Positions 24,216 to 64,000 of a stretch of DNA of 64,000 bases are shown here, one piece after another. Where the stretch lies: the NCBI GenBank assembly GCA_973895155.1, contig OZ316892.1:31055802-31119801 (forward strand). Direction: 5' to 3'. This DNA comes from Marsupella aquatica (taxonomy: Eukaryota; Plantae; Marchantiophyta). Every line of letters begins with the position of its first letter. Position 1 is the stretch's first letter. The notes under the pieces are model-generated. The model made no database searches. It saw only the letters and a list, made by a program, of their open reading frames with translations, and was not told where the DNA came from. A program made the translations under genes and the position numbers.

Positions 24216-25250
24216 CTAGCCCGGCCCGATGCCCGTTTTAGGGTAGCACAAAAGATGTCCAGGAGAGATGTATAGGAGAGAAAAACTGTTGAGGTCAGCA
24301 AAAGATGTTGAGGTGATAGACGATGTCGAGGAGAGGAAAGATGTCAAGGTGATATTTAAAAGAATGTCCAAGTGAGAAACATATGTCCAAGAGAGAAAAG
24401 ATGTTGAGGAGAGAAATAGATGCTGAGGTGAGACAAAAAATTGAAGAGATAAAATATGTCTAGGTGAACAAAAGATGTTGAGGAGAGAAACGTGTGCAAA
24501 GGAGAGTTTAGGGTGTTGAGAAGAAAAAGATGCAAAGCAGAGCAACAGATTTTGAGGTGAGAAATAAACTTGACACTTTTTCCACCCTTACCCGTGGCAG
24601 GAAGGGGCAAGATAAAGCCTCTCCCTCCCTCTTTTCCCATCCATGTGCCCCCCTTCCCCTTTCTCCTTGCCCCTGCCCCTCTTTGTTTTGCTTCCAAGGC
24701 TCTTCCAAGGCTTTGTTTGGGACGATAAAAGTCAATTTTTGTAAGACAATTTAGTTTAGGGTGTGAAAACCCATACTAATATTTGTCATAGTTTATGGGT
24801 GTGAAAATGTCATCATTTTGGCACAATATATATATACAAATAGCCCAATGCCTGTGCGTTGCACAAAATTAAGATGTTGAGGTGAGGAAAGATATCGAGG
24901 AAAGATGTTGAGATGAGACAATGACGTTGAGGTGCGGAAAAGATGTCGAGGAGAGAAAAATGTCACAAAATGCTATTAAGGTGAGGAAATCATGTCCATG
25001 TTAGAAAAATGTGAAAATGAGAATATGATGTTGAGTTGAGTCAAAGATGCCAAAGAGAAAATATGTCAAGAAGAGAAAATATATGAAGGTGAGAAAATGA
25101 TGTCGAGGTGATAAAAGATGTTTCTAGGAGAGAAAAGGTGTAAAGGAGAGGATCGCGCGATGTCTAGGTGAGAAAAAGATGTCAATGTGAGATTGAAAAG
25201 AACATTGTTTTTTATAATGTGATTTGAAAATATGACATATATATAAACAC
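24216..25250 (-). mobile_element. two tandem non-autonomous Helitron-like units with purine-rich ~20-bp degenerate internal repeats
   Basis: Minus strand reads ACGGGCATCGGGCCGGGCTAG|T ending at 24216 and GTGCAACGCACAGGCATTGGGCTAT near 24840-24865, typical Helitron 3' hairpin/CTAG ends; both adjoin AAAGATGTYGAGGWGAG arrays. Confidence 0.6.
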
Positions 25251-29639: not shown

Positions 29640-29646
29640 TATAAAA
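29640..29646 (+). promoter_or_regulatory. TATA box (TATAAAA) of the 5' LTR
   Basis: Canonical TATAAAAGGGG, 108 bp upstream of the LTR-ORF ATG; identical copy at 39761-39767. Confidence 0.7.
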
Positions 29647-29747
29647 GGGGAGCCAACCCTTTGTAGTGCACCAGTCCATCAGTCCACGCGCCAGCTTCGA
29701 CCCCAGCTCTCTCGTTCTATCTAGGTCGCCACTACTATCTCCTCTGA

Positions 29748-32408: not shown

Positions 32409-33322
32409 CGGCGGAGTAGGAATAGATTAGGATTAGGATTGGCTTAGTCAGGCTCTTGGGACAGGCACCTGCCTTAGGTACGGCAGCGCTGCCCTGCTGT
32501 CCAGCCTGCGTAGATTATGATCTTCTAATAAGACACAGCCGTTTTCCGGCCTGACTGTCAGCTTAGTTAGGACCTTGGTCAGCGAATCTTCGGCGGGAGG
32601 ACGCCCCGTTCCTCGGCTCTTAGTATTTAGTGCACCCCTCGGTAGAGGCAGGGGGGGGGGTTTTTAGTTTCAGAGTCGGACATCCGCGGGACATGCGGGG
32701 AGTCCCGACCTCTAGGAATGACAGAGTACCAAGGGGAGGGGGTAGGACTAAGCTTGTCGGGCGAGTGCGGAGCCGGGCTCCGTTGTAGTGTGCACCCTTG
32801 GCCTTGAACCTGTGCATTCCAGGGCTGTCGTGTCAACTAAGTGTACGCATATGTTCCCTTTGTAGTAAAAATCCTTTCCCATCATTTTTCCTTCGTGTAA
32901 ATCGAGATTGTATGCATGTGTGCGCATATGTGTGTGGGTTTCTCGTATATGGGTGGCAGCGCCGGGCCGAACGCACTACCCGAGACGTGCACAGGGTGCA
33001 GCCTGCGGGTAAGTGGTTGCGAGCACGGGTTGAGGACCTGTATCATCGAATCCGGATCGAAGGCGGACAGCACGAAGGCTTAGAAGCCCTTAAGCCGGGG
33101 TCGATCCTGCTATCGACTAAGGTACGTTCCGGCGGCGGAACACAAACCATACCTAGGAGGTGTCCGTATTTAGCAGTATGCGCACTTAGCGCTAGTTTAC
33201 GAGAATAAGGTGCATTACGTACTTCCCTTCCTGCCCGAACCCTCAGATTTACGAGGGATGTGCCCGTCTAAGCTGAAGTCTGAGTTAAGGCCGAAGCCTA
33301 CGACGTGACATAGCCTTTGTTT

Positions 33323-33340
33323 TGGCGCTAGATGGAGGGG
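33323..33340 (+). promoter_or_regulatory. primer binding site TGGCGCTAGATGGAGGGG
   Basis: TGG-initiated 18-mer 12 nt after the 5' LTR; cognate tRNA not determined. Confidence 0.75.
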
Positions 33341-33433
33341 GCACTCTACATATCGTAGAGGGGAGACATGTGCGTATTCACCTAGGCAGGATACATCAGG
33401 ACGTAGTACTAACCATTGCATTTATATGAGTAA

Positions 33434-36400: not shown

Positions 36401-36439
36401 TCTCATGGGATCCGTCCATTCCGCAATTGGAGGAAGTAA
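33434..36439 (+). CDS. gag: gag-protease, one in-frame TGA at 34466-34468
   Basis: MPVTRSQ start; capsid (PFKG..DPDEWL..MRGEARPWY); Lys/Ser-rich tract; three CCHC knuckles; protease LVDGGAGVNIM..LLGRPWL; ORFs 33434 and 34565 share a frame. Confidence 0.9.
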
Positions 36440-39435: not shown

Positions 39436-42400
39436 TTCAGTCTAACTACGCTCGGCACGCGCGTTAGGTGGGTCTTAGGCCGCTATTATTAGCATAACGA
39501 CAGTATTTAGGTAATCATTAGGGGTAGGACATCATTAGGCAATAAGGGGGACCTCAGGTTCGGGCTGGCGGCGGGTCGCTATTCGCACACCCGGGTTATG
39601 AGCATGGAGTGGCCCCTCCCTCGGGTCCGTATAACGAACTTAAGGAAGCGGCCACTGACGCACGCTGACTCAGACCGATGGAGTGGCCGGTACACCACAA
39701 GCGTGAGCGGTTCAACCTATGGGCGTCGAGGAGACGTCGGGGATCGACAAGCCCTCAAAGTATAAAAGGGGAGCCAACCCTTTGTAGTGCACCAGTCCAT
39801 CAGTCCGCGCGCCAGCTTCGACCCCAGCTCTCTCGTTCTATCTAGGTCGCCACTACTATCTCCTCTGAATGTCGCACACGATCCTCTCCAGCTCGGCCAT
39901 TCGATTCTGGACGCAGTTCCTATCTACCGGAAGGCACTTGGCCGATTCATTGAAACACGCCAACCCGCGCCGATACGAGATCGAACGTGAATACGAGAGA
40001 GCCATCCGCCTAGCAGGACGACACCACTACGTCCTTAACTTTGACTACCCGTCTCAGAGCGAGCTTTACCGACCAGCTGAGGTATCTGGGTACTTCTTTG
40101 ACGGAGACAAATATATCGGGTTCTGGGAAGCATTGCTTCGGCTTCCAGACGAGGTCTTCAATATCCCGGGTACAATCGACCTGCAGCGACATCACTTCGA
40201 CCACATCCCTGCCCAGGTTCGGGCAGTCATTAACGGCGAGTCCAGTACCAACCGTTCGACAAGGGCGTCCGCACTCGCTTCGGAGAACTTCTACCAGCAC
40301 CTACAGAGCTTCATGGGAACTCGGCCATCAACCAACATGACCAACTCAGCCGGACCCGTACCCGTACCCGTACCCGTACCCATACCCGTACCCGTGCCCA
40401 TGCAACCTCAGCTTCAGCTTCAGCCTCAGCCGCAGCCTAGCCAAACCCCACCACCTATCACCCAGCCAGCACAGGTACGCTCCGTCATCAACGCGGTGGA
40501 TCTTAGCGATGACGACGAGGCTACCCCACCCTTGACCAGGCGGCCCAGAGGAACAAGCGCTCGGGGGGCCGACACTATACCGTCCCCACCCCCTGCTCTG
40601 ACCCCAGGAGCGGCCCCAGCAGACAACATGGTGACCGTGGCCGCCCCGGGCCCGTTACCAACCGCAGTGGCACTCCCCAGGCCCGATCGGGAGGATGGGG
40701 AAGTATCACCTTCCCCGAGTCAGTCACGGGGAAAGAAGAGAAAGGAATCCGCCAGTGCATCCGGGTTACCGTTAGCCACGGTAGCCGTAGCCAAGGTAAC
40801 GATGCATCGCATGGGGGAAAACGTTCACAGCAACATCCTCCATCCCAAGCATGCGGTGTACCTGAAGACTCAGGGATTTGAGCACCTCGCCTCTCTCCCC
40901 TGGAACACTTGCAGGTACTACGGGGAGGACATGACAGAATTTGTCAAGAATTATGACGACGTACGTCAACAGACTCGGCTGCGGGGAAGGAATATGTCCC
41001 TCACAGAAGAACGGCTCAAGATGATCTTCGGGTTACCCGAAGGTGACCATCGAGTCGAATCACGGGCTCCCGGGGGCAAGGGGGCCAAGTACCAATCTTC
41101 AAGTTTTCCCTCAGAGGGATCAGTAGACAACGGGTTCGTGATGAGGACCTGCCTCATGCCCGAGATAGCTGAGCGGCTGGAGTTCCAGAGGTACGCTCTC
41201 CACTTGATGGAACCCCGGGGGGAGATCTCCGCCGCCCAGGTCATCCAGGTCGAGAACTATCGACCTAGGAAGTGGGCGTCGTACTTCGCTAAGAAATTCC
41301 ATGAAGAGATGGAGCGGCGAAGGAAGACGCTGTACATTGGCGGGAAGGCGTATTTCGCTAGCCACATCGAAATCATTCTTGAGTGGTATGCCCGGTTTGA
41401 TCGACGAACCCTTCCCCGCATCAACGTTACAAAGCTGGTCCCAGCTAGGTGGGTTTTTCCGGCATTGGAGAGACGGCCCCAACCCGAGGCCCGAAGTCCA
41501 GTGGACACGCCAGCTTCACCCACCCCACCTCCACAAATAGCTGTAATCGTAACCGAGGAGGCGCCGGAGGGGTCGGTCATCGCAACCGTTGATGCGACCC
41601 AACTAGCCGGGCTAAGTACAGAAGTTGGTACGGCAGAGGTCTTACCCGAACCCGGGTCTCCCAAGGACCCGCCGGTGGCAATTCCGGAGAACCGGACATC
41701 GCTGCAGGAGGATACTCCGGCCCCTTCCAACGTTATGTCCCCAGGGCTGGACGTCACTGCCCCGGCCCCTGCGCGTGTTGATGTCTGCCCGTGCCCAAAT
41801 CCGGACAGGCACAACTTGGACCACCCGGAACTCTTCGTACAGGGTACGTTTCTGAACGGGCTTCTGGGAGATTTCTCTCATCAAATTGCCCGGGATACCG
41901 GGGAGTTCATGGCTCGGAAGGTAGCCTGTTTCTTCAATCAGGAGTTGGTTGCCGCCGTAAAGGCAGGGCGGGCCCAGTCGGAGGCCCTTCAAAGGATAGA
42001 GCGGTACCGGGAGGAGTCCGTGTACCTAAAGAACGAAGTGGCGGCTCAAGAGGCTGAGCTTCTGCAACTACGACCCAAGGTTGCAGCCGCCGATGAGTTG
42101 TTAGCAAAGGTGTACGCTCTTACCGCCCTAGCCGAACAGGCCAAAGCTGGGAACGAGGCCGAGATTACACGACTCCGGAACCAGATTGACAGTTTGAAGA
42201 AACAAGCTGTCACCTGGCAGAAAGACCTGGAGGAGGCCGAGGAGCGAGCCCAGCGGGACGCGACGGAGATAGCCACGCTGCAGGCCGAGATGGCGCGGCT
42301 CCAAACCGAGGCCGAGAAGCAGGACCAGCTGGCGAGTAAACTGGCGAGCGACGCCCAGCAGCTGGAGGAGGCATGTCAGGAGGCAGCAGAGGAGACGGAC

Positions 42401-43429
42401 GCGGCGAGGCGAGAGAACGAATCTCTGCTGGACCAGGTCCAGCTCCTCAAAGCGGACAATGACAGGCTTCGAAGGCAGCGGGATGGCCGTTCCCATTCGG
42501 GCGGCTCTGGCAAGCGTGCCAGGCATTAGCGGCGGAGTAGGAATAGATTAGGATTAGGATTGGCTTAGTCAGGCTCTTGGGACAGGCACCTGCCTTAGGT
42601 ACGGCAGCGCTGCCCTGCTGTCCAGCCTGCGTAGATTAGGATCTTCTAATAAGACACAGCCGTTTTCCGGCCTGACTGTCAGCTTAGTTAGGACCTTGGT
42701 CAGCGAATCTTCGGCGGGAGGACGCCCCATTCCTCGGCTCTTAGTATTTAGTGCACCCCTCGGTAGAGGCAGGGGGGGGTTTTTAGTTTCAGAGTCGGAC
42801 ATCCGCGGGACATGCGGGGAGTCCCGACCTCTAGGAATGACAGAGTACCAAGGGGAGGGGGTAGGACTAAGCTTGCCGGGCGAGTGCGGAGCCGGGCTCC
42901 GTTGTAGTGTGCACCCTTGGCCTTGAACCTGTGCATTCCAGGGCTGTCGTGTCAACTAAGTGTACGCATATGTTCCCTTTGTAGTAAAAATCCTTTCCCA
43001 TCGTTTTTCCTTCGTGTAAATCGAGATTGTATGCATGTGTGCGCATATGTGTGTGGGTTTCTCGTATATGGGTGGCAGCGCCGGGCCGAACGCACTACCC
43101 GAGACGTGCACAGGGTGCAGCCTACGGGTAAGTGGTTGCGAGCACGGGTTGAGGACCTGTATCATCGAATCCGGATCGAAGGCGGACAGCACGAAGGCTT
43201 AGAAGCCCTTAAGCCGGGGTCGATCCTGCTATCGACTAAGGTACGTTCCGGCGGCGGAACACAAACCATACCTAGGAGGTGTCCGTATTTAGCAGTATGC
43301 GCACTTAGCGCTAGTTTACGAGAATAAGGTGCATTACGTACTTCCCTTCCTGCCCGAACCCTCAGATTTACGAGGGATGTGCCCGTCTAAGCTGAAGTCT
43401 GAGTTAAGGCCGAAGCCTACGACGTGACA
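39403..43429 (+). repeat. 3' LTR (4027 bp)
   Basis: TGTGACG...CGTGACA followed by TSD TAGCC. Confidence 0.97.
39869..42529 (+). CDS. intact 886-aa LTR-encoded protein: N-terminal globular region, Pro-rich linker with NLS-like RGKKRK, PMD/Transposase_32-like domain, C-terminal coiled coil
   Basis: ATG-to-TAG ORF wholly inside the LTR, downstream of a TATA box; G..L..LPW..EF..N...RG....L...L...FGLP pattern resembles the accessory domain of Athila/Tat-type extra ORFs. Confidence 0.9.
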   Translation: MSHTILSSSAIRFWTQFLSTGRHLADSLKHANPRRYEIEREYERAIRLAGRHHYVLNFDYPSQSELYRPAEVSGYFFDGDKYIGFWEALLRLPDEVFNIPGTIDLQRHHFDHIPAQVRAVINGESSTNRSTRASALASENFYQHLQSFMGTRPSTNMTNSAGPVPVPVPVPIPVPVPMQPQLQLQPQPQPSQTPPPITQPAQVRSVINAVDLSDDDEATPPLTRRPRGTSARGADTIPSPPPALTPGAAPADNMVTVAAPGPLPTAVALPRPDREDGEVSPSPSQSRGKKRKESASASGLPLATVAVAKVTMHRMGENVHSNILHPKHAVYLKTQGFEHLASLPWNTCRYYGEDMTEFVKNYDDVRQQTRLRGRNMSLTEERLKMIFGLPEGDHRVESRAPGGKGAKYQSSSFPSEGSVDNGFVMRTCLMPEIAERLEFQRYALHLMEPRGEISAAQVIQVENYRPRKWASYFAKKFHEEMERRRKTLYIGGKAYFASHIEIILEWYARFDRRTLPRINVTKLVPARWVFPALERRPQPEARSPVDTPASPTPPPQIAVIVTEEAPEGSVIATVDATQLAGLSTEVGTAEVLPEPGSPKDPPVAIPENRTSLQEDTPAPSNVMSPGLDVTAPAPARVDVCPCPNPDRHNLDHPELFVQGTFLNGLLGDFSHQIARDTGEFMARKVACFFNQELVAAVKAGRAQSEALQRIERYREESVYLKNEVAAQEAELLQLRPKVAAADELLAKVYALTALAEQAKAGNEAEITRLRNQIDSLKKQAVTWQKDLEEAEERAQRDATEIATLQAEMARLQTEAEKQDQLASKLASDAQQLEEACQEAAEETDAARRENESLLDQVQLLKADNDRLRRQRDGRSHSGGSGKRARH

Positions 43430-46640: not shown

Positions 46641-48498
46641 CTATTGAATCTCAGGAGCGGATTTGAATTTTCTTTGTTTATCCTGAAAGAAAGCTGTGTC
46701 TGACCATACATACAAACATTGGTAATGTAATCGAATTGATGATGTATGCAGGTCTCACCTGATCCAAACGGTAACGGAGATTGGTCTCATTTGCCAATCG
46801 AAGTTGTTGATTTTCCTGCCCCATATGTTGTATTAACTTGGCAGCTTTTTCAGTTTCTTCTTGAAGCAGGGTCATCTTTAGTCGATAAGCTGCTCTTGAA
46901 AATGTAACTGATCCCTGCTCTACTAATGTGGACAAGTCAAATCCATCAATGTTGTGCAGTGCCTCGTGAAGATAAAATTCCATGGCTTTTTCCCTTTCCT
47001 TCGAAGCTTCTATGATGAAGGACTCCTTGGCCTCAACTTTGGGATTCCCTGCCTCTTGCAAACGTCGGGTGAGGTCGTCAAGGAGTTGTAAATCCGTGTC
47101 GAGCTGCTTCTTCAATCCCTGTACTTCTTCTTCTACTTTTCGGCATTGGCTCCGTTGGTTCTGTATCTCTCCCTGGAGCCTAGCATTTTCCTCTTTCAGT
47201 GCGTCTAGTTGCTTACATATTCTAGGCTCACACGGCCCCAATTTGTCTGACCTCTGTTCCAAAGCCGTGCCGTCGATTGTCATGCTCTGTACCGTTCCCT
47301 TGTGTAATAATGTACCTTCGGATTTGTGCAATGACTCTGCGGCGTCCTGATGAAATCCCATGTTCCGGCTGGGGCTCTCTGCAAACTCTTTTCCCTCGTT
47401 TACCGATGTGACGGCTACCCTCTGTTCGAAACCTTTCAATTGAGATGCATCTACTGATTCCAGCTTCTGTACATGTACATCCACCCGTCCGTCCTCCGAA
47501 CCGCCTTCCACCATGGAGGATTGTAAGGCGTGGTTGCTCGCCCTGAAGTTGTGCAAAATGTATGCTCCCTGTAGAGTGGCTTCTTCTCCACGATCTTCTT
47601 CGCCTTCTGAACTGTGATCGCGTGCTTCTTCCTGTTCCGGATTAGCTGCAGTCCCATGTGGTAAGGTGGATTCACTGGTTACCCAGTTTTCCCCGACGGC
47701 ATGACTGTAAGCAACGGTTTGCCGGTGACTCCTATGCCATTGGCGATTTTGCGGTGCAACATCAGGGATGGCGGTGGTATCCCTGATCGGGTTCACCATT
47801 CTTTTCTTTAGCACCCAACAAATGATGTAAGCAAGAAGTGAGGGAAAAGGAGGAACCGATTTGGACCCGAGTTTCTGAAGCAACTCTGCCTTCCACACTT
47901 GCAACGGGTGGAGCTCGCCTTCGAGCGCTCGAGCGGCGATCGTGATATGGTCAATTGTCCCATGATGGTAACCAGATTTTATCATCACCCATTTGGTGAA
48001 AAACTCTATATACTTGCGGACCTCCAAATTTGTCACCGTCCCGTATTGGATCTTCCCGGCACGGATCGAGGATCTCAAGTCACGGTCCGACCTCAAAAAG
48101 CCGATAATCTGCCGTGGAGTGTAAGGTGTGCACTTCACTCTTGTCAGGAGCTGCGATGGAACTAAACCTGGAATCCCAAACATGTTTGCCAATTCTTGGT
48201 TGAGCACCCTAATAAGCGGTGTCCTATCGTACTCGATGCAAAGTGACGCCTCATCCCCATAGACTGATCGTATATTCCGATGATAATATGCAGCCTCTGC
48301 CAAGGTCAGATCGCAACCCACCCGGACCATACCCAGGCATTTGGCACGACGGAAGATGCTCTCAAATTGAGTAATGTAAGCGGTGTCCGTTCGCGAGTTC
48401 CGAATGTTGGCCTCTGCCGCCATTGTAACGGTTTTAGAGCCATCGATAACTGCAGTGTTTCGAGTAGTCTCCGCGCGAGACCTCTTTCTGCTCGACAT
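46641..48498 (-). CDS. intact two-exon gene, distant PMD/Transposase_32-like domain plus coiled coil (exons 48498-46759 and 46682-46641)
   Basis: MSSRKRSR start; NQELANMFGIP, EVRKYIEFFTKWV and PSLLAYII match the LTR-ORF motif order; CAG/GTGAGA donor and TTTCTTTCAG acceptor define a 76-bp phase-0 intron ending DKQRKFKSAPEIQ*. Confidence 0.7.
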
Positions 48499-49953
48499 GA
48501 AATGAATGGAAGGACAACCTTGCAAAACCACAGTTTACTTCCGAAACTCGTGTCGTTCATTCGGGTGCTGGAACGATTTTGGCGAATTGCTCAAAAAACT
48601 TTTCATCCAACTATGTTGGCCCCTATTGTATCGCTCGAGGTGGCGGATGTTTTTAGGGCTGACTTCCGCTAAAGCCGGACATCGCATGCGGCAAATTAGA
48701 GGGTCAAATTTGAAAGCGATGCAACTTTTAAGTTTTTTTGTATTTCTTCCAAGACTTATGAGAGAAGCTTTGATCTGACACTATTTGTGAGATTTTAGGG
48801 TGTACATTACTGTTATCCTCTAGATACACTCAGCGGGTTACGGTGACGCACGGTGACTTCCCTCATATTTACGAGAGGGCCGACCATTCCCAAAAATGGG
48901 TTTCGGTCAAACAAAATGAGATGTATCATTATTAGCATTGACTTTTTGGTTGGTTGGTTGAAGAGACTCTTCAGCCCGAATTCAAGATTCAACACATGTC
49001 CCCTCGTTTATCATGCTTAGGGAAATGGAAGGAAGGTTGCCACGGTGTGTGGTCACAACGAATATATGTCATTGTTTTGATGGTTCGTTTAGGGTTCGAG
49101 AGGTGGCCAAATTGAAACGGGGTCTTCAATGGCTAATTTGGTGAAGCTCCGATTTGAGCTCTATGTTATCCCTTTCAGGGTTTATAGTTTAGGGTTGTAT
49201 GGTAAATGTGTTTTATGGAGCATATACTGGTGACTGGTGGTGTGGGTAAAATGGCTGCGGCTAGGGCAATTCTAGATTGCTGTTTCAAGTTTCGATAAAA
49301 CAATGGAGTGTAGCTCTGGACCTCGGATGGAACAGAGTGATTTCAAGCTCGTACGATTGATACCCATCTGTAGTGCCGAGCTGACTACACAAAACTGGTC
49401 ACAACACAACAGTACTTAACCGGCTGAGACTCAAGCTAACTTTGGCCGCAAGTTATTTCACTTACCACATCGGTGAATCAATTTAGTCACCATCTGAAGC
49501 AGTTGCCGTGCTAGTATGGGCTCGGCTGACACAACAGAACCCAATCCGGTGGTATTCTTGTCGTCGGGTTTGGCTATAAGACGTCCAATGAAAAGGCTTT
49601 GCATCCGACAAAACAGAGGCTTAGTTCCGCTGGCATACATAGATTGTAAAAAACAACTCGATAGTTGGGAAAAGTTTAGCCCTACTGACCAACTCCCTCC
49701 ATTCTTCCCTAGAGCCTAACTCCTAAAGCTTTACAGTGTAGCGCAGATTGCGCCAATGCTACCTACTACAAAACCAATCTATGAAAAAAAGAGTTGTGCC
49801 TGCTGTACTCTGGGGTCGTGCTCAGACATAGCTGTTTTGAAAGGAATAAATATGTCTTTGGAAGAAATTCCGGAATATATACATTGTGTGACCGCGTTTT
49901 GAATGTGTAATAAAATATGTACATGTACATGTGGGGTGGATGGCTTCAGCTCG

Positions 49954-51483: not shown

Positions 51484-54471
51484 CTACGTTTGATGCCAGG
51501 ACTTACCGTTGTCCGATGCCGATGCCGATGCCAATGCAAGTCGGGTACGATTGGGCGTCGATTGTCCTGGTGCCGTCGATAGGGGTGGCTTTACAGGATG
51601 TTCCTTCTTTGCCCGTGACATCTCCAGGAGCCGATTGATCTCCGCCAACTGCCTTTTCGTCTGGGCCTTTAGAAGTTCGTTGACACCTTGTAATCGTTCG
51701 GCCTCATCCCCCGCGGAATCCCGCTGTTGTCGGGCTTCCTCCAAGTCTGCCGCCAGAGCTGCGATCTCCGATCTAAACCCTGCCACCTTCTGAAGGTGAA
51801 ATTTGGCTCTCTCTTTCTCGGCCGCCAGTTCCTCCGCTTTAGCCCGGATGTCATCCAACCTCTGAACTGACACGGACTTTGCCTCCGCCACCTCCTTTGC
51901 TGCTTGCGTTTGTAGGTCCACATATCGTTGATCTCTCGTTTGTTGCAATTTCTCCAGGTCCCCACTTATTCCGACGATCTTCTCTCTTTCTGAGTCCAAC
52001 TCCTTATTGTGACTCTCCACGAGATTGGCGACTTGATGAGCAAAACTTTCCTTCAAACGCTTCACCGAATCTTCATGTAGTCGTTGTTCGTCCTGCATCG
52101 TCCGGTTAACATCATGTTGCTCCGCGACTTGGCGTTTTATCTCTTCCACCGAACCATGTAAGACTGCCAATTTGTGTTCCATCTCCGCCATGTGGGCGGA
52201 CTTCCGTCGCTCGGCCTCTAACACCTTGGCGCTCTTGTCCCTTTCCGCCTGTAACGCCTTCCGGTGAACCTCCATAACATGGGCTTTCATGTGCTCTTCG
52301 TGCAACGCTTGCTGATGTGCTATCTCCAAACTTTGCTTCAGGTGCAAAATGTGTTCCGCATCTTGCTTGTGTGCATCACTGATCGAATTGAGCTCGTGAT
52401 TGAGGTCGTGTAGGACCGCCTGCATATTTCCCATCCTGGCCTGCTTTGCATCCATTTCTCAAAGCCTCCGGATGACCTCCGCCTTCATGAGTTTCTCGGC
52501 CTCCAACTTGGACAAAATGTTCTGGCACTGGGCATTTCGCTGCCAGAGGAGCGGCCTGGCGTCCATGTGACGATGCAAAATTTCTATTAGAAGCTTGCCT
52601 ACCTCGTCAGCACAATACTTGGAAAGCTCGACGGCATAAGCGGACCTTGGCTCATCCGTACGAACTGGACGCCAAACTTTCGTGTCCTACTGGCAGCTCA
52701 TTTTCTCGTAGTAGTCCAAATCCTGAATTGGTTGTTGGGCGTTTAGGATTTTCTCTTCAATAAATGACGGCCAGGGACCGCCGGGAATGTCATGCTCCTG
52801 GGACATGTCTTCATCCGGGGGCAATTGGTGAGCTTCTGCGTTTGTGGATAGTGACTGTTCGGTAGCTATCATCAGTGTTGATTCCGGTAATACTGTCATC
52901 ACCTCCGTTTGCCCCACGCTCCCCACCGGCCGGTCTTGACCGAGCACCCATGACTCTCCAGGCGGGCAGCACCCTTCTGCAATGGTCTGTTGTGTGTCTA
53001 TGCCGGGGCCCTCAAAACCATGGCCTGGGCCTGGAGCCTCGTCGGGTGCAAGGTGTTGCTGGTTTTCGCAGCGGTGAATGTTGGCCGCAGTGGAGGCCAA
53101 CGGGTGTAGAGACTCCCCGTCCACCGCTCGAGTTGCTGTACCTTCTCTGCACTCACTTGCCACTGTTGCAGCACCCTCTGTTTCGTGCCGAACACCATTT
53201 CTGGAGTCGGTATGGTTGTCCTGGAACTTCCCCGAAGTCTTTCCGCTCTGTTGAATTTTGGCCGCAGTGGAGGCCAACTGCTTTAGAGACTCCCCGCCCA
53301 CAGGTCGAGTTGATATACCTTCTTTGCGCTCCCTCGCTACCACCGCAGCACTCTCCGCTTTGGGCCGAACGCCATTTCCGAAGTCGGCATGGGTGTCTTG
53401 GAACTCCCCCGAAGTCTTAGTCAGGTTTGTCGCCGTGGGACGTAATGATTCCTGACCGTCTGGTTTGCCGTCCGATCCCGAACTGGGAACCCTTGTCGCT
53501 GGATCCTCCGCAACATCCCCCATTCCCAACAGTAAAGGCTCCTGATTGCACAGCAGCCCCATCTGCACCTTGTCTTGGGGAGCTTTGCCGACCCCGCCAT
53601 CAGTATGGGGACCGGCTGATGCGAACAAAAGTCTCCGCGCGTACCTGCATATCATTGGTAAATGATAAGCTAACTTTGATGATGAGGAGGTCTGTAAGTT
53701 TTCTCTGGAAAAATCAAGGTTACCCAAAAGTTTTTTATACAGAAACCCACAGTAGTTTAGGTTCGGTCCGAGAGTCTGCAACAACCAACAGTGGCGCTTC
53801 GGTATTTCTTCATCGGGATCGGTCATCCAGAGTGCCGCCCTCAAGAATTCCAAGAGCTCCAGCTGATGTTTGCTGGTGCACTGGTTCTTCAGGAACCCAG
53901 TTGTGGTGGGTGCTCCTCTGAAATAGGTCCACTGGTGATCACGTATGTACACCCGCCCTTGGATCGCTCCCGGCCGACCTCTGGGCAAGCGGAAAACCTC
54001 GGAGACAACCTGCTCGTCAAATTGGAATTCCCTGCCACTGATGCACCCAACCTTCCGCTTGGGGTCCCAAGTCCCCACAAAGTCCCGCATCTCCTGTTCT
54101 GACACATCGTCCGAATGCAACCACGGCAGGTTTATGAAGGCGGAGAGGCCTGTGTTGTCCGTCGAAGTGTCATATTGATTGGTATCAATGTTGGCGAATG
54201 CTTTGTCCTCGATCTTGGGGAACCTTAGCTCTAGGTTTGTTGGCAGTGTTCCATTCCACCCCTGCGAATCGCAATGTGTTGGTGGAGATGCAGCAGCCTG
54301 AGCCTCAAACGGCGGCTCCTCTTCTCTGCCCTCAAGTGCCGCAACCCCGTTGGGTGTGGTCCGGGTCTTCTTCTTGGGTGCCACTCCAGGGGTTTCTTGA
54401 TTGTCCTCCTCCGTGGATGTTGCTGTTGCATCTGCTGCCAACTTCCTCTTCATCGGGGGCTCCGGTGCCAT
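51484..54471 (-). pseudogene. homologue of the family-B LTR ORF (PMD/Transposase_32-like plus coiled coil) with two in-frame stops
   Basis: ORFs 52687-54471 and 51484-52455 share a frame; the linker is open except TAG (52687-52689) and TGA (52459-52461); DIPGGPWP..EVIRRL* matches DLPGGDWP..EVIRRLR of 5432-8773; G/GTAAGT donor at 51507/51506. Confidence 0.85.
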
Positions 54472-54611
54472 GGTAGGGCTCTGCAGGTCCCAGTGTGATC
54501 AAAATGGCCCGCACAAACTTCAATTACGCTTTCAAAAACCCTTTTAAATAACCCTAAACGTTTTGTCGACCAAGATGTGCTTATCGCCACGCCTTGGAGC
54601 CCCAAAACGAG

Positions 54612-54935
54612 TGAGAGAATGATAGTCCCGTCTACTCACTCTTGTCAAACCTTGCTTGCGCATCACCCTGAAAGAGCGCGATAGAATCACAGTCCCTTCT
54701 ACTCACTCTGTTGAACCTCGGATGCCCACAACCCTGAAAGAGCGCGAGAGAATCATAGTCCCTTCTACTCACTCTGTCAAACCTCGGATGCCCACAACCC
54801 TGAAACAGCACGGCAAAATGATAGTCCCATCTCCTCACTCTTGTCGAAACTCGTCCCACAGCCCAGAAAGAGCGAGAGAGATTGATAGTCCCAGCTCCTC
54901 ACTCTTGACGAACCTCGCTTGCCCACAAACCCTAC
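54612..54935. repeat. about 66-bp tandem repeat, 5 units, immediately upstream of the 54471 start codon
   Basis: Units GAGAGAATSATAGTCCCTTCTACTCACTCT(T)GTCAAACCTCG..CCCACAACCCTGAAAGAGCGC visible at about 54612, 54680, 54745, 54811 and 54874. Confidence 0.9.
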
Positions 54936-56755
54936 TACGACTACGACTACTACATTATTTTAGCCGTTGGTGATAGACGACTTAATCCGGCCTTGACCCT
55001 CAAAGGTTGTTTAGGGTTTAGGGTACAAACATATCATTTGTGAAATGCCGATAGCCATCTACAACTATAATAAGGGATCCCACCTTTTTTCGTCCTTGGT
55101 CACCATACAAAAAAGCTTCTGGGCGGGAAAGATCCAGTAATTTTTTCTAAATAAATCAAGATATTGAAAAATATTGATAATTAGGGGTGACAATGTTATT
55201 GGTGGTAACCCTAAACTGGACCCAGGCACTCCAAAATTTGGCAGACTACCAACGACATCTCTTTGTGTGGATGTTCTTAGAAAGTTTCTTTATGTTTTAG
55301 CGTGTCAGTCTTTTTGAAAGGAGGTTGACAGATTGATAACATGGCGGGAATGGATTTGCCATCATAGCTGGATTTGCTAGAGCAAGGGAAAGAGAACCAA
55401 GACTATGTCAAAATGTAACAGGTAATTAATCTGCATCTCCTTTGGCTTATCCTCGCTGCATTTCAAGAAATGATAAATGAAGACCCAAAAAATGTGGGGA
55501 TTGGGACACGGGGCACATCTGGGAAATTGATAAAGCCAAGCAAAGATTGGTTTTTTTTGCCATTGGCAAGGGTGGCAAGGGATTCTGTAGCTGAGGTGAA
55601 CAATTTTGTTGACAGACATGGCATGTCTGAATATGCACAAAATTCAATGATAAGCACCGATTTGCCTCTATGTCAACTTACACCTGAGCTTCAGAATATC
55701 ATAGCAAAGTATCGAGTGAATTTTGAAGGGAGTCGAGATGACCTTGACATTGATGCTACTGTTGAAGTGGCTTCTGCTGTTGGTGAACCAGGTGAAGAGC
55801 CAGGTCAACCCACTTCTCAATGTTTTCTCAATGTTTGTGTGAGTAATAAATTTTGTAAACTGTAATCAAATATTGTGCACAGTTTCTAATTTTTTATAAG
55901 CACAACTTTGATTATTGTCCATTCCATTTATTTTGACTTGTGACCACAATTAGTGTCATGCCATATTAATGTCACACACCCTAATTACCGTCACTTACCT
56001 CAAATAGTCAAATCTAACCTCACATTAATTAGAGTGTGTGAGACTAAATACTGTAAGGAGTGTAGTGGAAAGAAAGAAAGAAAGAAAGAAAGAATGAAAA
56101 AACTGCACAACTTTCCAAAAGCGAGAAAGGTACAATACTTTAAGACAAGTGCATTAATTTCAAGGAACTTTATGATTGAAAGAGAAGTGCTTGAACTTTG
56201 TGCTTTCCTGATTTTCTGCTCTGCTCAAATTGGCGCTCTCTATTTAGGTGACACCTGTTGATCAATAAACCATGAACAATGTAAATTTTATATCCAATGG
56301 CATATAATGTGCACTCATCAGTAAATAGAACACTAGTTGCTTGGTTGAAGGGTCGAACCTTCTCATGCAAGTAAGGAAATATGCCCCTCAAAATGATAAG
56401 TATAATATAGCGGACCTGATAAGAACTAGGAAATGAAAACAAATTTATATGACTAAATTTTAAAGCATGGACATGGCCAAAGCATGGACTAGGCCGGATT
56501 AACATAATAATATATTTCAATTCAATGAGACCAAAAAATGTCCCTACCTAAATACCGTATATATATATCTCTCCAAACCATCGACCAGATAGATTTCAAA
56601 TTTCCATCTCATCCCTTGATAAAACCTTTCATTATTATGATTGCAGGAGAAGCTTTTTGATGGAGGTTTTTCAATGAGCCTAGCATTTCAATGAAGCGTT
56701 TCAGAGGTGACGGATTTTCTGAATCATTGTACCCTTCTTCGAAAGCATAGTAGTG

Positions 56756-57018
56756 TTTAGGGTTTAGGGTTTAGAGATTGATTTCAAATTTCCCACTCTC
56801 TCTCGCTCGCAATGAGCGAATCGTTCGTGGATGTATGGTTGTATGGTTTAGGGTAACATCAACTGCCAAGGGTTTAGGGTTTTATCAATGGTTTGGGCTT
56901 TAGGGTTGGGATTTTCCCTGCTGTTTTCATTTTTGTAGGTTTTCGATTACCATTAGTCAGATGAATTTCGGTCGTTTTACGACTACTTTAGCTGGTTTAG
57001 GGTTTAGGGTTTAGGGTT
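56756..57018. repeat. cluster of interstitial telomere-type repeats (TTTAGGG) / telo-boxes
   Basis: (TTTAGGG)2-3 at 56756-56774 and 56996-57018, with further single units between. Confidence 0.85.
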
Positions 57019-58664
57019 GGGTATAGGTATTTTACCTTGCGTTGCATTAAACATGATGGGGGTCCCTGAAGGAAGGAGCTTGCCATGGGGGTCTGTCAAG
57101 AAATTCATAAACTCTCAAGCATCCTCATACTAAACCAATGGAATGTCCAACCCGCCCTACACGACTCCCGCGCAGAGCTTTGGTTGATGACTACTATAGT
57201 CCTGTTCTGGTTCACTACCAACATCCATGTCCTATGGGTTTTCCGGTGACAAAATGGACCGTAAATGGCTGTGTTTCAGCCGGCTTAGACTTTGGGGCAA
57301 ACCACCTACTGTACGCCCTCTGTTTTGTGCCACGTTTTCATCGTTGTTGAGCACCCCCAAGTCCCCACTTTTATACCGGCGGTGTGACGGATCCACAATG
57401 TGTCGAGGTTTGTAGAGAGCATTGACAATTGCTTGACATTGAATTGGGCATCGCCCTTCTTCACAGCCCTCTCACGGAGCCTCCGGCCGTTGCAGCGGAA
57501 CGACCCCATGGCCTGCATCACAATTATCTGTAACGTCCTTTTGTAAAGCGTTTTTCCACCTCTTCCCCACCATCTTTCATTGCATTGGTATGTTTGCGTC
57601 GATAGTGCACAGTAGAAGACTGGTAAGAACTCCATAAACAAGACAATTAGGAATTAGCAGGTGAATGTCCATATGGGCCTCGTTCTGGATGCATGTTCAC
57701 GATGAGTACTTTTAAGATGCTTTGAGAGGTAACGAGAATCACAATAGCCAAAGGCAATCGTTATACATGAAAACTGGGAGGAGAAATCACAAATGTCCAT
57801 ACGGTGAGTGCACTGTAGACGCGGCAATCGTGATCATGGAAAAATAAGCACATGGACGATGGCTTCAAATAAACTTTCCACTAATATAGAAGCATATATG
57901 ACCAGCATAGACAAAACCAGAGAATTACTTCAACAACATGGAGCTACAGTCGCGCAAGCAAATGAACAGCATATCCATGGAAGCAAGTTGTTGACATTTG
58001 TCAATTATCTCAGTGTCGATAAACGCATCATGCTGCCAAATCTTTCGGCAAAGACAGTAAATAATGGAGTCACCTCAATCTGTTGAGGAACAAATCAAGA
58101 TTGTTTCCACAGTCATGGTAATTACAAACAAAGAGAGAAGAAGAAAGGTACAGGGTAGGCAAGGTCCAGCTAATTAAATAATTGAAAATCCTGCCTGAAG
58201 CTATGGTGGTAAGTTCCAACGAAGTACTTCTTCAACAAGCTTAGAGCTAAGGAAACCGAGGAAAGCATACACCTTCTTAAGCTTTGCACAGGAGAGACAA
58301 CAGAGAACTAGGACGAAATCTTGCAAGAGGAGTCCTCGGTGGCTGATGTGGTGTTTTGCCGGCCTGGAATGTTTGAGGGGTCGTTCAGGCCCGGGATGAC
58401 TTGCACCAAGTTGAGCATTTCCTGAGGTATTCGGTTGGATCGAATTAGCTCAGTGAAGAGGGCTGCCAACAGTTGAGCTCTCAGGAGAGTCTATGGATTC
58501 TCCAGATCAGTTGTAGCCCTCTTCTCTTCGTGTTTTCTGTGGAGCCTATCCCTCTCTCTGGCGTCCTTTTGCCAATAAATCGTGTGCTTCCCTTCTGTCA
58601 GCGAGTTGTTGACATTTCCATTTAATATCATATGCTGCTGTCTGAAAACATTTTTCTCACCTAG

Positions 58665-59750
58665 CTATCCGATGTAAACTCCTGCCAAATTGGGCCGGGA
58701 CGTAGCCTGTGAAGGACCCGCCTTCCTTCCATTCTTCTTGTTATGATTGGATCTCTCCACAGTGGGATTACTTGGCGGAGCTGTGGGGACTCGTGCAGCC
58801 TGCCCATTTTGGGTGTAACGAAACGTGTGCTCTCCAGCAGAAGCAGTCGGGTTTGCTTCCTGCCTTACCCCTCTGAATTCATGAGCTTGTGATGCTGTGG
58901 CTCGAGGCACCGTGCGTGGATCTGTATTGTCGTTGGGAAGCTAGTCCCCACTGGAAATCAAATTGTTAGTCCCCACCCTCTTCGCAAAAATCTGTGTAAC
59001 ACTTTATGTCGTTCCTGTGGGAACATCTGAAATAATCAGCGGAATTGAATGCACGATGCCAATAAATTGTACCTGGTGCCACCGAGTCTTGCTGCAGAGC
59101 TCCTTCGTAGTCCTCTTGGTTTTCATCATCTGATGCTGCATCCACAAAGAGCTCGGTGTGTCCTGGCAATCCAACAGACGCTGTGGTAGGAGGAGCAACA
59201 TTTGCCCTCTCACCATACACCGCATGCATCCTGTCGAAGTGAGGGCAGATTTTGTCGAGGTTGTCCTCCGACGTCATTCCTGCCCGAAACTCCGCCATTG
59301 ATAAACCAGTTCCTGAATTGTTTTTGGCGTCCTTATGTTATCCTTCATGGCGAGAGCCTCCTTGTACCCTAAACCGTAACGTCAAAACCTTTTTCCCAAG
59401 TTATCTCCCGTGCCTACAAATTTGGGGAAACCGTTGGCATGGAGATGAACTTGTCCCCACAGGCACCCTACGAGAGGATCCATTCAGCATATCAAAACTC
59501 TTTGCATCTTCCGATTCATATCGCTTCCACGAACCTGCTCACAATTGGATGCGACCATGTCCGCTCCGTGTTCATTCACCTGCGAGTGTACCACTACACT
59601 ACTGCTGGATCCTGCGATACTCCCGATCCAGACAATACTGGAAATGTAGCAGCGCCCCACATCGAATTTGCCATACCTTCTATTTCTACTCCCGACTTTC
59701 ACACGGAAAATTAGTAATCACAGAGAGAGGGGAGCTTGAATTTTGAAACC
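58665..59750 (-). pseudogene. degraded Myb/SANT-like accessory gene of the type found beside PIF/Harbinger transposases
   Basis: SGTGLS..DNLDKICPHFDRMHAVYGERANVAP motif; donor CAG/GTACAA near 59073; (AAACCCT)3 at 59746-59766; frameshifts; no transposase recognised nearby. Confidence 0.4.
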
Positions 59751-59987
59751 CTAAACCCTAAACCCTCTGAAATGTCGCGCATTACCACCAGTACCAGACA
59801 AGTTGCAGAGCAAAGTCGGCCGAGGTGTTCAAATGGGAACAAGACGGGCTTTCCTTAACCTAGGGTAAACCCGGCTTTGTAAGAGGCCCCCTTGTTTTTG
59901 CATGCCTGGCCGAAAACTCGGTCCCGGGCGGCTTTCCGGACAAACTGTGCTCGTGACCATGTTCGATGGCGCCAAGTTTGAGATGCC

Positions 59988-60017
59988 CTAGTAGTAGTAG
60001 TAGTAGTAGTAGTAGTA
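59988..60017. repeat. (TAG)n microsatellite
   Basis: About 9-10 consecutive TAG units. Confidence 0.95.
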
Positions 60018-60275
60018 CTATAGTACTGTAGTAGAGGCTTCACCACTTGGCATTTCCGGTCATTAACCAGGCCTTATGGGATGGAGTAGGAGCCATCCAA
60101 GAGTTGTGCTCAGATGAGGGATGAAGTACGGACCAATAATGAGTTTGTCCGTGGTTGCCGTTGGGATACTCCCTTCAGATATGGAGATGGGACCATGGAT
60201 CCGGAAGGAAAAATTCTACAAAGTAGCAAAGAATGAGAAGGCTGTGTTGTAGGGGCCTAAGTTTAGGGTGAGCCG

Positions 60276-61907
60276 TTGCGAAAGATGGAAGCCGACGGGA
60301 GGGATGTCCGTGGCACGGAGGAGATGAAGCACGAGTTGCAACGTAAGTTGGCAGAGCTTGCCATCCTAAATGGACAATACGCAGCTGAGAACCTGCTGCT
60401 TAAGGAGAAGGTGGCCAGGGGGGATAAGGCGTTGGGTGCAGTCCGGAAGCAGCGTGATATGCTGGCGTTTTGGGTTGATGATGCTTGCAAGGCTGCTTCA
60501 ACAAAGCAAATGGATGTGTGCACTGAAATGACAAAGGACCACCAGGCGACAAGAGAGGCGTTGGAGCGGGAACCGAGTGATGTTCCCGAGGTGGCCGCTA
60601 GACAGTCGGACGATCTGAGGAGTCAGCGGACCGCGGCCTTGGAGGACGTCAAGAGCCGGAATGGAGAATCGAGGGATGTTCCCAAGGGGGCCGCTAGACA
60701 GTTGCGTGCTCTGATGAGTCAGCGGACTGCGGCCTTGGAGGAAGTCGAGGGCCGGAATGGCGACATAGTGATGCAGTTTGCGACCTTGCGCGTCGCGAAT
60801 GAATCTGAACCTAAGGCGAAGGAAGACAGGCAGAATGGGAAGCGAGATGCACTTGCCGGAGAAGCAGAAGAAGTGGAGCGGAGGAACAAGTACTTGCAGG
60901 CCCTAGCGGACAGTCAGATGCAGAAATGTTGCAAGTGCGCAGAAGCAGGGAAGGAGTGGCGAGGAGGATTATTAGGTTCACGACGACCCGGCAAATCGGC
61001 CACTTATGAATGGGAGGAGCATCCTAGTTTTTGTAGGGAATTCAAGCTTTTGTTGGGAAAGTTTAGTGTAAAACGAATCTGCACCGATGTCCACGAGCTC
61101 GTTAGGCAGAAGAATCTACTCTTCCCTACTGCTGATCTACCTGTGTGGCTGAGCGAAAGTCTTATCGTTAAGGATCGGAATGATAAGCCGCTGTTGTATT
61201 TTTTGAAACATGCCCTTCAAAGACCTTTCTGAAATAGAGATCCTACGTTGGAAGGATTAGAAGCTCTTGAAGAGCTTGTGGAGGTGTACCCGCCAAATCG
61301 ACCCGCATCTGCAAATGGCAGATTCAAGGGACAAGCTATTCCCCTTGGCTCGGGTGTACACCATCTGGCATTTTGGCATGGCACCGGTCACAAACATGTC
61401 CCAGGGGTTTTGTCACAGCACATCATTGGATCCGGGAAGAAGTTGAATTGGATCCTAGAGTTCATAAACAAGTTCACGCCGGTGACACAGGCGATTGGAG
61501 CGCTCTTCGAATGCATCGACAGTGACATGTACGAAACATATAAGGCATTGTTTGATGCTTTCGCTCCTGGAGCAGCCAGTTATATGCATTCCACTTCCCG
61601 AAATTGTTTCTTAGGGATGGCAATAAATACCCAACTCGCTCCTGGTCCGCACAGAGATACAAATGACGCTGTGGATGGCTGGGTTGCGAATGTAGCATTT
61701 GGTGATTTTGAGGGTGGACGTTTGGAAGTGCCACAACTTGGTTTACAATTTGTATTACAACCTGGAGATGTGGTGTTTATGCGGTCGGCCGTTCTGCAAC
61801 ACTCGATATCAAGGATAACGTCCGGCTCTAGGTTTGGCGTAGTGTTTTTTACTCACGAAGCGAACTTTGCAGAGAATCTTCGCAAGTCACGGATCAGTAC
61901 CGAGTAA
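60276..61907 (+). pseudogene. TET/JBP-like 2-oxoglutarate/Fe(II) dioxygenase with N-terminal coiled coil; single in-frame TGA at 61230-61232
   Basis: ORFs 60276 and 61248 share a frame; HRD (61650-61658), FGDFEGGRLEVPQLG, PGDVVF, distal His (61800-61802), Arg (61830-61832) and VFFTH fit the double-stranded beta-helix active-site pattern. Confidence 0.75.
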
Positions 61908-62099
61908 GATTAGAGCCATTGGGGCTGTAGGTCTGTGGCGGGGTGTGAGGATGGTTTCTTGGTACTCTGCTCTCACTATGCAATTTGTGAACAATCTGCA
62001 ATGAAGATATGATGGATGACATCGAACAAGAGATCCCATTGAATTGCTGGTTTGGTAGCGCTAGTGGAGCAATGAGAAGCATTTTTCAATGAAAATGAG

Positions 62100-64000
62100 C
62101 TTCAGAGCAACACCAATTGTCTGTGCTCCTTTCGATGGATTCCAGTTTTAAGACACTTGGAAATGATCTCGGAGGTAGGCCATCCAGATCCATTCTCCGA
62201 CAATCCCCTTTTTGTGATGTCTCATTTTACGTGCTTCAGCCTGTTTCTTAAAGACCTCCTTCATCCTTTTCTCTCCATGCGATCAGTGGTTTCCGGAAGG
62301 CTCCTGTGTTTGTGTGTTCGCCCCCAAAGAGACCTTTTTTCCAGTTCGCCAAAAGCCCTTTCTTAAAAAGTGCCAGCATCATAAGGTGGTAAGTTGGGAT
62401 AGCCTTGAGAATGTGTTTTAGCATGATCGCCCTACCAGCAAACATGAGGCTGCTGTTCGCCCATGTGTGGAGACGCTTCCTCAACTTGCCCAGAAGGAAA
62501 TTTGCATCTTGTGAAGGTTGAGTCCTACACCTCCAAGGCAAATACATATCTCTGCCTCTTTAGCAATTTTGCATCCCGTTTCCTTGAGCCAGTCAGGAGA
62601 TGCCATTCTCCAGGTAGATCGGAATATGATTTGAGACTTTTTGACGTTCAAGACAGCTCCCGAGATGTTGTCTGGATCACCTCACGAGCAGCAACAAATT
62701 CCTCTGCAGTGTCTTTGAGGAATAGTCCCGTGTCATCAGCGAAGAGCTGGTGGCAAAGACTACTCCCATTACAGAGTTGCAATGCATTGATGACCCTGCA
62801 TCCAATTGTTGTTTGAGCATGGCCATCAGAGCTATGGCTGATTGGTGAGTGTCAAAAGGATGCTAGAGAGCGGACATCCCTGTCAACTTCTGTGAGGGTA
62901 AGCATAGTGAGTGGTCGCTAATTTGACAACAGAAGCAAGTCCTGACTCTTGGGTATGAGTTCAATAACTCCGGCTAGTGGCTTTGGTTGTCATGGTTCCG
63001 TGTTAATGAAAGCCCGAATAACAGCAGAGTAAGTAGGACCCATGTACGACCATCCCTTTAGCAGCATCTTGATGGTGACTCCGTCGATTCCTGGTGACTT
63101 ATCTTTTGGCATCCCTGTAACCACTTTAAGAATATCTGCATCTTCGGTTGTCTACCTAGATACACTGCCTTGGTTACCTCGACATCTCCTCCCTGTCCTT
63201 CTGTTTCCTTTTTGTGCTTTCTTCGGTTTGTTGGGACCTCACTCTGTACGTCCACTCTGTTAGCATCCCAAGCAGGCATCCGGGAGAGGACGGTAAATTA
63301 TTACATCCACCTGGTAGTTTCCCACTCCTGGCACCGCAATGTTGATGTACACAATTGGGTCTTCATATTACATGAAACACATCCTCGTATGTGAGAGAAT
63401 TTACTCCTGGATTTATGTGTCTGCGCATATATAGCACAGTTCCAACCTCGGCAAGCATAATATTCAAAAGCAGGGTTGAACAGTGGCATGTCGATCCAAA
63501 CAGGAGCCCTGGTAGATTTCATCGGCTTAGCGTCAAAGTCAGGTGTCCGGGGCATGGCCACTACCATCTTCATCAGAATGTGTTTCGGGAATTCGATATC
63601 GAATTAATATCAATCTTTAAGGTAGTCGCGTGTTGGATTGAAGTCCAGAGTGTATAGAATGATTCCTCTCTTCTGTAGGTGAAGTATTCTGCTAACGATG
63701 ATATTTCGATCTACCCCGACAGTTTCGGATCTCATCCTAACTGTCGGACGGTGCTGCAGCGTAGGACAGTTCACGGTGAACTTCAGCAATCCTTCTTGGT
63801 CTCTCCTTCATGGTGTCGGTGTTCAAACTTGTGACCTACCACCCGATACATGCTGAGTTCTGTTGTGCGAGTTCGGGTCGCCGTTAACTATCATGCCAGA
63901 AAATTGGAGGTTTCGCATTTCTGCCATAGCTGTTTCTCTCTGGCGCGCTGTCGGAAAACTGTTTAGTATAAAATAAACACGGTCAGTTGATTCAGGAAAG
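62100..64000 (-). mobile_element. degraded L1-like LINE (ORF1 remnant joined to RT fragments)
   Basis: APVWIDMP..HIRGCVSC (ORF1); KSPGIDGVT, CHQLFADDTGLF, GRAIMLKHILKAIPTY (ORF2); multiple frameshifts and deletions. Confidence 0.82.

Follow-up and report, generated by a model that had tools for sequence, protein, structure and literature searches.

A stop-broken TET/JBP dioxygenase gene of fungal type in land-plant DNA from Marsupella aquatica

Reviews assign TET oxidation to animals and fungi, and glycosylases to plants, as their respective means of DNA demethylation (PMC10573277, PMC11065753). A published outline of where the TET/JBP family occurs comprises animals, amoebae, algae, kinetoplastids, bacteria, phages and fungi, and does not name land plants (PMC8889193). 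TET-carrying mobile elements are known in fungi, where 11 lineages of DNA transposons carry TET/JBP genes (PMC12730594), and in Chlamydomonas (bioRxiv 10.64898/2026.10.09.758095). An anti-silencing role has been proposed for the fungal TET+ elements in a survey whose text describes the function of transposon TETs as not experimentally validated (PMC12730594). Two members of the family serve as guides to substrate. In NgTet1, residues D234, V293, F295 and H297 bind 5mC; D234, which reads the N4 of the base, makes the enzyme prefer cytosine to thymine (PMC4678852). NgTet1 R224 has been called strictly conserved in 5mC dioxygenases (PMC8256090). CcTet also oxidises 6mA, an activity determined by G331 and D337; the AG type is characterised by Gly or Ser at position 331 and Asp at 337 (PMC12730594).

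Here, a gene of this family is described within a window, a 64,000-nt stretch of Marsupella aquatica DNA to which all coordinates refer (Table 1); P0001 denotes the protein of the window TET gene. The gene is a pseudogene of the TET/JBP family, fungal in type, and lies in the DNA of a land plant. With slightly better than an even chance of being right, we read it as a stop-broken copy, likely acquired from an ascomycete and likely spreading in the plant genome on a mobile unit that carries it as cargo; intact copies would be expected to oxidise 5mC.

Table 1. Coordinates of the TET/JBP gene, its parts and its neighbours in the window
Feature	Position	Strand	Remarks
Decayed, frameshifted gene	58311..59690 (ends approximate)	-	head-to-head with TET gene
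Intergenic stretch between divergent genes	59737..60284	.	telobox-type repeat 59745-59766; TAG microsatellite 59989-60034
TET/JBP dioxygenase gene	60285..61907	+	540 codons, single nonsense codon
N-terminal helical (probably coiled-coil) extension	60285..60998	+	not in nearest soil homologues
96-bp (32-codon) tandem duplication	60570..60760	+	inside N-terminal extension
Catalytic double-stranded beta-helix domain and its N-terminal helices	60999..61883	+	modelled part, pLDDT 96.4
TGA, codon 316	61230..61232	+	CGA (Arg) in X2 and X4 contigs; TGA also in X2
H456-x-D458 iron ligands and D461	61650..61667	+	D461 at NgTet1 D234 place
H506 iron ligand, R516 2-oxoglutarate arginine, V520/F522/H524	61800..61856	+	last three at NgTet1 V293/F295/H297 places
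Decayed LINE (reverse-transcriptase remnant)	62000..63603	-	tail-to-tail with TET gene; cut before usual ORF2 C-terminus

The TET/JBP gene and its predicted enzyme

An initial annotation had described an intronless forward frame (60276-61907) broken by one TGA. This description holds: the first ATG lies at 60285, and the single interruption is an in-frame stop at codon 316 of P0001. The HxD..H..R ligands are likewise complete (H456 at 61650, D458 at 61656, H506 at 61800, R516 at 61830), a pattern that in its bare form is unspecific, with four raw matches across the window's six frames. For the fragment after the stop, Pfam Tet_JBP (PF12851) scores 45.4 bits against a cut-off of 34.9 (E 6.6e-12) and is the sole Pfam family at E values up to 1. 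A sequence search of the PDB returns NgTet1 (1.4e-8) and CcTet (1e-4), the next 2-oxoglutarate enzyme being PiuC (0.24). In Foldseek, the AlphaFold2 model of the domain (60999-61883; based on 94 aligned rows, the stop being entered as X) is predicted to resemble CcTet (8e-18), NgTet1 (1e-12) and CMD1 and TET2 (both 2e-9), with the first non-TET structure at 3e-6. By VIA-align, the predicted fold is nearest to CcTet (Z 26.6, rmsd 3.2, 282 aligned), followed by NgTet1 (21.4), TET2 (20.6) and CMD1 (16.3); ranks 1-16 of the model's matches are all TET or CMD1 (Z 26.6-15.2), and FTO and AlkB score 13.7 and below. Pfam, the PDB matches, Foldseek and VIA-align thus agree on a TET/JBP enzyme and not one of the AlkB or prolyl-hydroxylase type, and the best matches, which for a wrong assignment would have been small-molecule or protein hydroxylases, all belong to TET/JBP.

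P0001 comprises an N-terminal extension (residues 1-238) and the enzyme domain (residues 239-540), with GC3 of 0.62 in the extension versus 0.45 in the domain. The extension had been called a coiled coil; the five long helices predicted there are compatible with this, but their low confidence (pLDDT about 40-65) makes them no proof, and the poor full-length fold (5-row alignment, pLDDT 49.5) was taken for helicity alone. The strand pair proposed upstream of the ligands, IVKDRNDKPLLYFL (residues 294-307), appears as two strands in the predicted structure. A CCKC motif is present at 60927-60938 as annotated, but it is missing in all four nearest homologues; it was rejected as a meaningful motif and given no weight. 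The CpG observed/expected ratio, 0.87 in the TET gene versus 0.37-0.98 in other elements, is uninformative.

The ligands are conserved among homologues (H456 in 84 of 93, D458 in 87 of 93, H506 in 78 of 83 and R516 in 78 of 80), and sequence alignment puts D461, V520, F522 and H524 at the base-reading positions of NgTet1, with Asp at the D461 place in 83 of 93 homologues. The annotation had named 5mC, thymine and 6mA as candidate substrates. The residues favour the first, and intact versions of the enzyme are predicted from them to oxidise methylcytosine. The last is the least likely of the three, because both CcTet determinants are replaced in the alignment, G331 by D461 and D337 by V467. The iron-binding motif of the window protein is HRD, not the HxE of the PE type.

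A quite unlikely alternative leaves family and origin unchanged but has the enzyme act on thymine, on 6mA or in hypermodification, in the style of JBP, CcTet and CMD1, in a role other than 5mC removal. It can draw on the best fold match, CcTet, being also a 6mA oxidiser (PMC12730594), on the minor thymine activity reported for NgTet1 (PMC4678852), and on the Leu (L451) that stands at the NgTet1 R224 place here, as it does in 9 of 11 clade members. The Asp at the place that sets the 5mC preference and the replaced CcTet determinants argue against it, as does the lack of any glycosyltransferase family among the frames scanned. An arginine present in 68 of 76 rows, R346, may stand in for the R224-type arginine and may resemble TET2 R1261, the equivalent of NgTet1 R224. 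The Leu at the R224 place also weighs against the favoured reading, as do the differences of the window copy from its clade at N344, F347, N448 and N469.

The nonsense codon and the residence of the locus in plant DNA

The state of the stop codon was read from contigs of public sequencing runs (X1-X4; X1 and X2 are from organism A, X4 from organism B), and contigs in X2 and X4 cover site 61230. An X4 contig of 1467 bp that spans the site (depth 48) has C there, giving CGA (Arg); in X2, two contigs have C (depth 63 of 110) and one has T (depth 47). The two runs that read CGA represent two organism labels and two studies. Since contigs of both carry CGA at this site, the stop, a genuine C-to-T change at a CpG, is not fixed. 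A change from CGA to TGA is what deamination at a methylated CpG would produce, and such deamination is its presumed cause. The X4 contig with CGA has four extra letters within 60057-61150, and its frame could be shifted.

An intron concealing the stop was considered and rejected. The four nearest homologues are colinear across it, and since their alignment has no break there, the TGA counts as a true nonsense codon rather than part of an intron. Assembly error is unlikely in view of the exact TGA in an X2 contig, although X2 may be related to the source of the window. The TGA lies upstream of every catalytic residue, and thus the window copy, which has no open frame through the domain, is a null allele; CGA versions exist.

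The window contains a PPR gene, copia and gypsy elements, LINEs and telobox repeats. The PPR protein presumably belongs to the PLS class, with its greatest likeness to moss and liverwort PPRs. Two studies, with one organism label each, supplied the runs in which the locus was found; identity between the labels is about 98% (24 differences in 1463), and the locus contigs have the depth of flanking DNA in X1, X2 and X4. The least probable of the readings considered here is that a fungal endophyte or contaminant, misassembled or co-sequenced with the plant, is the source of the gene or of its high-depth relatives. The relatives do all look fungal. However, an X4 contig (61689-62325) spans the end of the TET gene and continues into the plant-type LINE, and the high-depth relatives share with the window copy both the N-terminal region and the sequence just past the stop codon. 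Because this contig reaches the LINE and the depth of the locus equals that of its flanks, a fungal contaminant is unlikely; the recurrence in two labels and two studies also counts against it.

Several other features were seen in the window. The PPR gene (20441-21850, +) is frameshifted near 21625 and shows no C-terminal domain. A near-intact gypsy element (29282-43072) encodes gag, protease, reverse transcriptase, RNase H and integrase at 33434-39435 and has near-identical LTRs of about 3.7 kb. Each LTR contains a coiled-coil ORF of 733-886 aa that matches no Pfam family, and at 2734-5057 there is a third copy, which is partial. Four long ORFs, at 5393-8773 (+), 46678-48534 (-), 51484-52458 (-) and 52687-54498 (-), have Pfam coiled-coil matches only; those at 5393 and 52687 have N-terminal regions that look alike by eye and may be mobile-element cargo. 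Tandem arrays occur at 2364-2592 (18-bp), 24236-25192 (about 18-bp, degenerate) and 54592-54933 (66-bp). Repeated sequence, with contig depth raised in four of four runs, is present at 57000-57800 and 62400-63000.

Relatives, copies and the carrier

A query with residues 240-540 gave, among 1852 candidates, four clusters of soil and Logan proteins (45-50% identity, 323-344 aa), none of the four with the long N-terminus. A profile search of 1.84 billion representatives returned 1156 matches at E values up to 0.001, 58 of them at 1e-30. Species names were obtained for 3 of 24 clusters looked up (four named proteins): Watsoniomyces obsoletus, Phylliscum demangeonii and Peltula sp., all of which we take to be lichen-forming ascomycetes; among the species names of these 24 clusters there was no named plant protein. 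Nine metagenome loci hold relatives at 39-55% identity (of 160 pattern matches), and the TET gene of one (L003) contains a fungal-style 48-nt GT-AG intron with a CTAAT branch box. Among viral contigs, 79 pattern matches yielded no confirmed relative. In the Atlas, Tet_JBP clusters come top at 0.96, with Basidiomycota commonest.

Two quick trees, midpoint-rooted and without bootstrap, were made, one from the 79 proteins that remained of 198 after removal of partial domains and cluster duplicates, the other from 37 hand-picked rows. The window protein pairs with a Logan protein, P0002 (SH-aLRT 94 and 97); the pair sits within a clade made up of 15 soil and Logan rows (SH-aLRT 99), a nesting repeated in the 79-row tree, and in both trees the named lichen fungi fall on a branch apart from the window protein. 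Nearest relatives, the L003 intron, the named fungal homologues, trees and Atlas support the fungal type that the motif spacing had suggested, and a fungal origin is likely from these comparisons, with quick midpoint-rooted trees as their phylogenetic part. Donor and direction are not fixed, since the nearest neighbours are unnamed, the named fungi sit on another branch, and the trees are of the quick, midpoint-rooted kind.

The soil loci have neighbours of their own. At L001 (3367-5049, -) and L007 (2864-4267, -), an ORF of 468-561 aa with an HxD...H pattern, which we assume to be JmjC-like, lies tail-to-tail with the TET homologue; in soil fungi, a DNA demethylase and a histone demethylase might be paired in this way. 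Short frames adjoin TET homologues at L002 (1257-1514), L008 (766-1023) and L009 (14-271) and, as we read them, resemble Fot1/pogo transposase fragments. Eight flanking frames at the soil loci, including the JmjC-like ORFs and two of the pogo-like frames, gave no Pfam family.

Related sequences are abundant in organism A. The X1 contigs that are identical to the locus lie at depths of 34-46, and a related contig of 1793 bp, which matches 61338-61911 at 82% (105 differences in 574), has a depth of 1014. A second deep contig (depth 1029) matches 60177-61090 patchily, and with it the N-terminal extension. Other X1 contigs are a related one of 1398 bp (depth 28; 82%, 55 differences in 312) and a near-identical one of 387 bp (depth 73; 21 gap letters). 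In X2, locus contigs at 138-169 compare with related contigs at 4417-4654. The ratio of related to locus depth is thus about 22 and about 31 in X1 and X2, whereas X4 is flat at 33-55; this comparison covers X1, X2 and X4 (X3, with an unclear single-copy level and 57% of it read, was left out), and contig depth is not copy number; a tandem array or a co-sequenced organism could give like depth. X1 and X2 each contain a contig in which 57770 is joined to 61333, marking a second copy with an internal deletion, and several distinct paralogue contigs occur in these runs. The gene belongs to a multicopy family. Recent amplification in organism A, from many near-identical templates, is likely, because a 1.8-kb contig of such depth implies them. 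The high-depth contigs are known as alignments alone and their frames may or may not be intact; one carries V490G, in a column that is well filled, together with a +1 and a -1 shift that compensate each other.

The decayed gene head-to-head with the TET gene behaves similarly: its depth is raised in X1 and X2, whereas X4 is flat. In the Atlas, where its recognition value of 2279 falls short of the 2300 mark, it reaches 0.93 to Basidiomycota hypothetical proteins and 0.75-0.76 to Myb/SANT-like clusters, and it has no Pfam family; the Myb/SANT likeness is a weak sequence lead towards Harbinger-type elements. This gene is the probable partner of the TET gene in the amplified unit. Its depth suggests a recently amplified unit of two genes, for which the stretch between them would probably serve as a shared promoter.

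An unlikely alternative is that a fungal-derived TET was domesticated as a host gene family, in dispersed or tandem duplicates, with no active element; a TET route would then have been added to the plant's own demethylation. No transposase or termini were found, the locus is common to both organism labels at about 98% identity, and the N-terminal extension is not in the soil homologues, all of which would suit domestication. A host gene family does not sit well, however, with the 22-31x depth in organism A against the flat depth in X4 of organism B, with the deletion derivative, with a decayed neighbour that is deep as well, or with a null allele that segregates. Taken together, the depth contrast, the deletion copy, the deep decayed neighbour and the null allele amount to the behaviour of mobile DNA. 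A bolder version of the mobile reading, a young, spreading transposon with a fungal TET whose 20-30 near-identical intact copies oxidise 5mC beside ROS1/DME, is tentative, and we lean against it.

The nature of the carrier is less clear-cut. A link to a KDZ transposase, or to any other, was not borne out by the Pfam scans. The stop-to-stop frames of at least 42 aa in 54900-60300 (63 of 63), 15 read-through frames and longer frames scanned elsewhere in the window matched no transposase family; the DNA is decayed, and the window ends 2.1 kb downstream of the gene. Around the TET gene, the search for terminal inverted repeats and target duplications gave nothing beyond chance-level pairs (112 inverted pairs, the longest being telobox or microsatellite), and a 14-mer terminus search gave no pair with fewer than two mismatches. 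Kyakuja and Helitron elements are without terminal inverted repeats. A DNA transposon is the most likely carrier. A 148-codon frame at 55419-55865 (+), without a Pfam match, may be a carrier remnant or unrelated; in our judgement it resembles the C-terminus of a pogo/DDE-type transposase.

On the other side of the gene, the decayed LINE (tblastn to another LINE in the window, E 0.001) probably belongs to the flank and not to the amplified unit. That the TET gene is instead antisense cargo in the tail of this LINE, copied by retrotransposition, is very unlikely. The gene does lie antisense and 3' of the reverse transcriptase, but the high-depth 1793-bp contig departs from the window at 61911, its remaining 1078 letters lack a LINE match at 80% likeness, and contig depth drops beyond 62025. 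Moreover, insertion or deletion is a better fit to an ORF2 cut before its usual C-terminus, and Kojima found no TET+ retrotransposon. The possibility that the LINE's missing 3' half lies across the unit was rejected: the C-terminus of the other LINE gave a best z of 1.3 against 30 frames and no tblastn match.

A proposed route and comparison with known systems

The starting point of the favoured reading, a mobile unit with a fungal TET as cargo, is a domain with a TET fold and the ligands for Fe(II) and 2-oxoglutarate. A DNA transposon would have captured or inherited a fungal TET and entered the plant lineage, where the TET may have gained its helical N-terminal arm, perhaps for oligomerisation or targeting. 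The intact enzyme would flip 5mC into a pocket of D461, V520, F522 and H524 and hydroxylate it to 5hmC or further. The oxidised base could then escape maintenance methylation or be excised by host glycosylases; ROS1 and DME are reported to excise 5hmC (PMC10573277). Consequently, the element and its surroundings would lose silencing marks, and CpG decay would slow. In organism A, this may have helped the unit of TET and divergent neighbour to reach some 20-30 near-identical copies, judging by contig depth. The older copy in the window was inactivated by the change from CGA to TGA, presumably through deamination of a methylated CpG.

In the literature searched, to which the main family surveys (Iyer 2009, 2013, 2014) do not belong, no report of a land-plant TET/JBP was found. 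If the favoured reading is correct, TET-carrying elements extend from fungi and algae to land plants, by probable fungus-to-plant transfer, and a compact enzyme would be supplied from a TET clade for which no characterised member was found. One of the Iyer surveys may mention a moss sequence; such an entry would lower the novelty of TET presence in plants and leave that of its amplification untouched. 5hmC has been detected in plants (PMC10573277). On the bolder version of the mobile reading, a land plant would have a native enzymatic source of 5hmC and TET-based anti-silencing beside ROS1/DME; with a native multicopy TET, the source of 5hmC would be testable within one lineage by comparing organisms A and B (5hmC, 5fC and 5caC). 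The enzymatic source of plant 5hmC is, to our knowledge, unsettled.

Among described systems, CcTet and the AG-type TET/JBP proteins of Kyakuja/Zisupton transposons (7vpn, 7w5p, 8jkk; PMC12730594) give the best whole-domain fold match (TM 0.72) and are alike in the HxD motif and in a multicopy, transposon-rich setting. Unlike them, the window gene, at 16-19% identity, is without G331 and D337, and here there is a land-plant host, a long helical N-terminus and no KDZ transposase found. NgTet1 of Naegleria (4lt5, 5cg8; PMC4678852) is the best sequence match in the PDB and its four 5mC-binding places are kept, but its R224 place is Leu here and structural identity is about 20%. Fungal DNA transposons of the PU and PE types (PMC12730594, Table S1) likewise have TET as probable cargo beside other genes, with passive transfer between elements; however, the PE type has HxE in place of HxD, the PU rows look unlike by eye, and that survey covers fungi only (PMC12730594). 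Chlamydomonas CMD1 (7cy4-8) and the transposon and virus TETs share with the window gene a green lineage and mobile DNA (bioRxiv 10.64898/2026.10.09.758095). CMD1 differs in structure and sequence (Z 15-16, 10-13% identity), and the window gene groups with fungal-type proteins, so that an acquisition separate from that of CMD1 is likely. Finally, the ROS1/DME glycosylases and the VANDAL anti-silencing proteins (PMC10573277; VANDAL as cited in PMC12730594) are alike in the job proposed, with proteins and chemistry that are unrelated.
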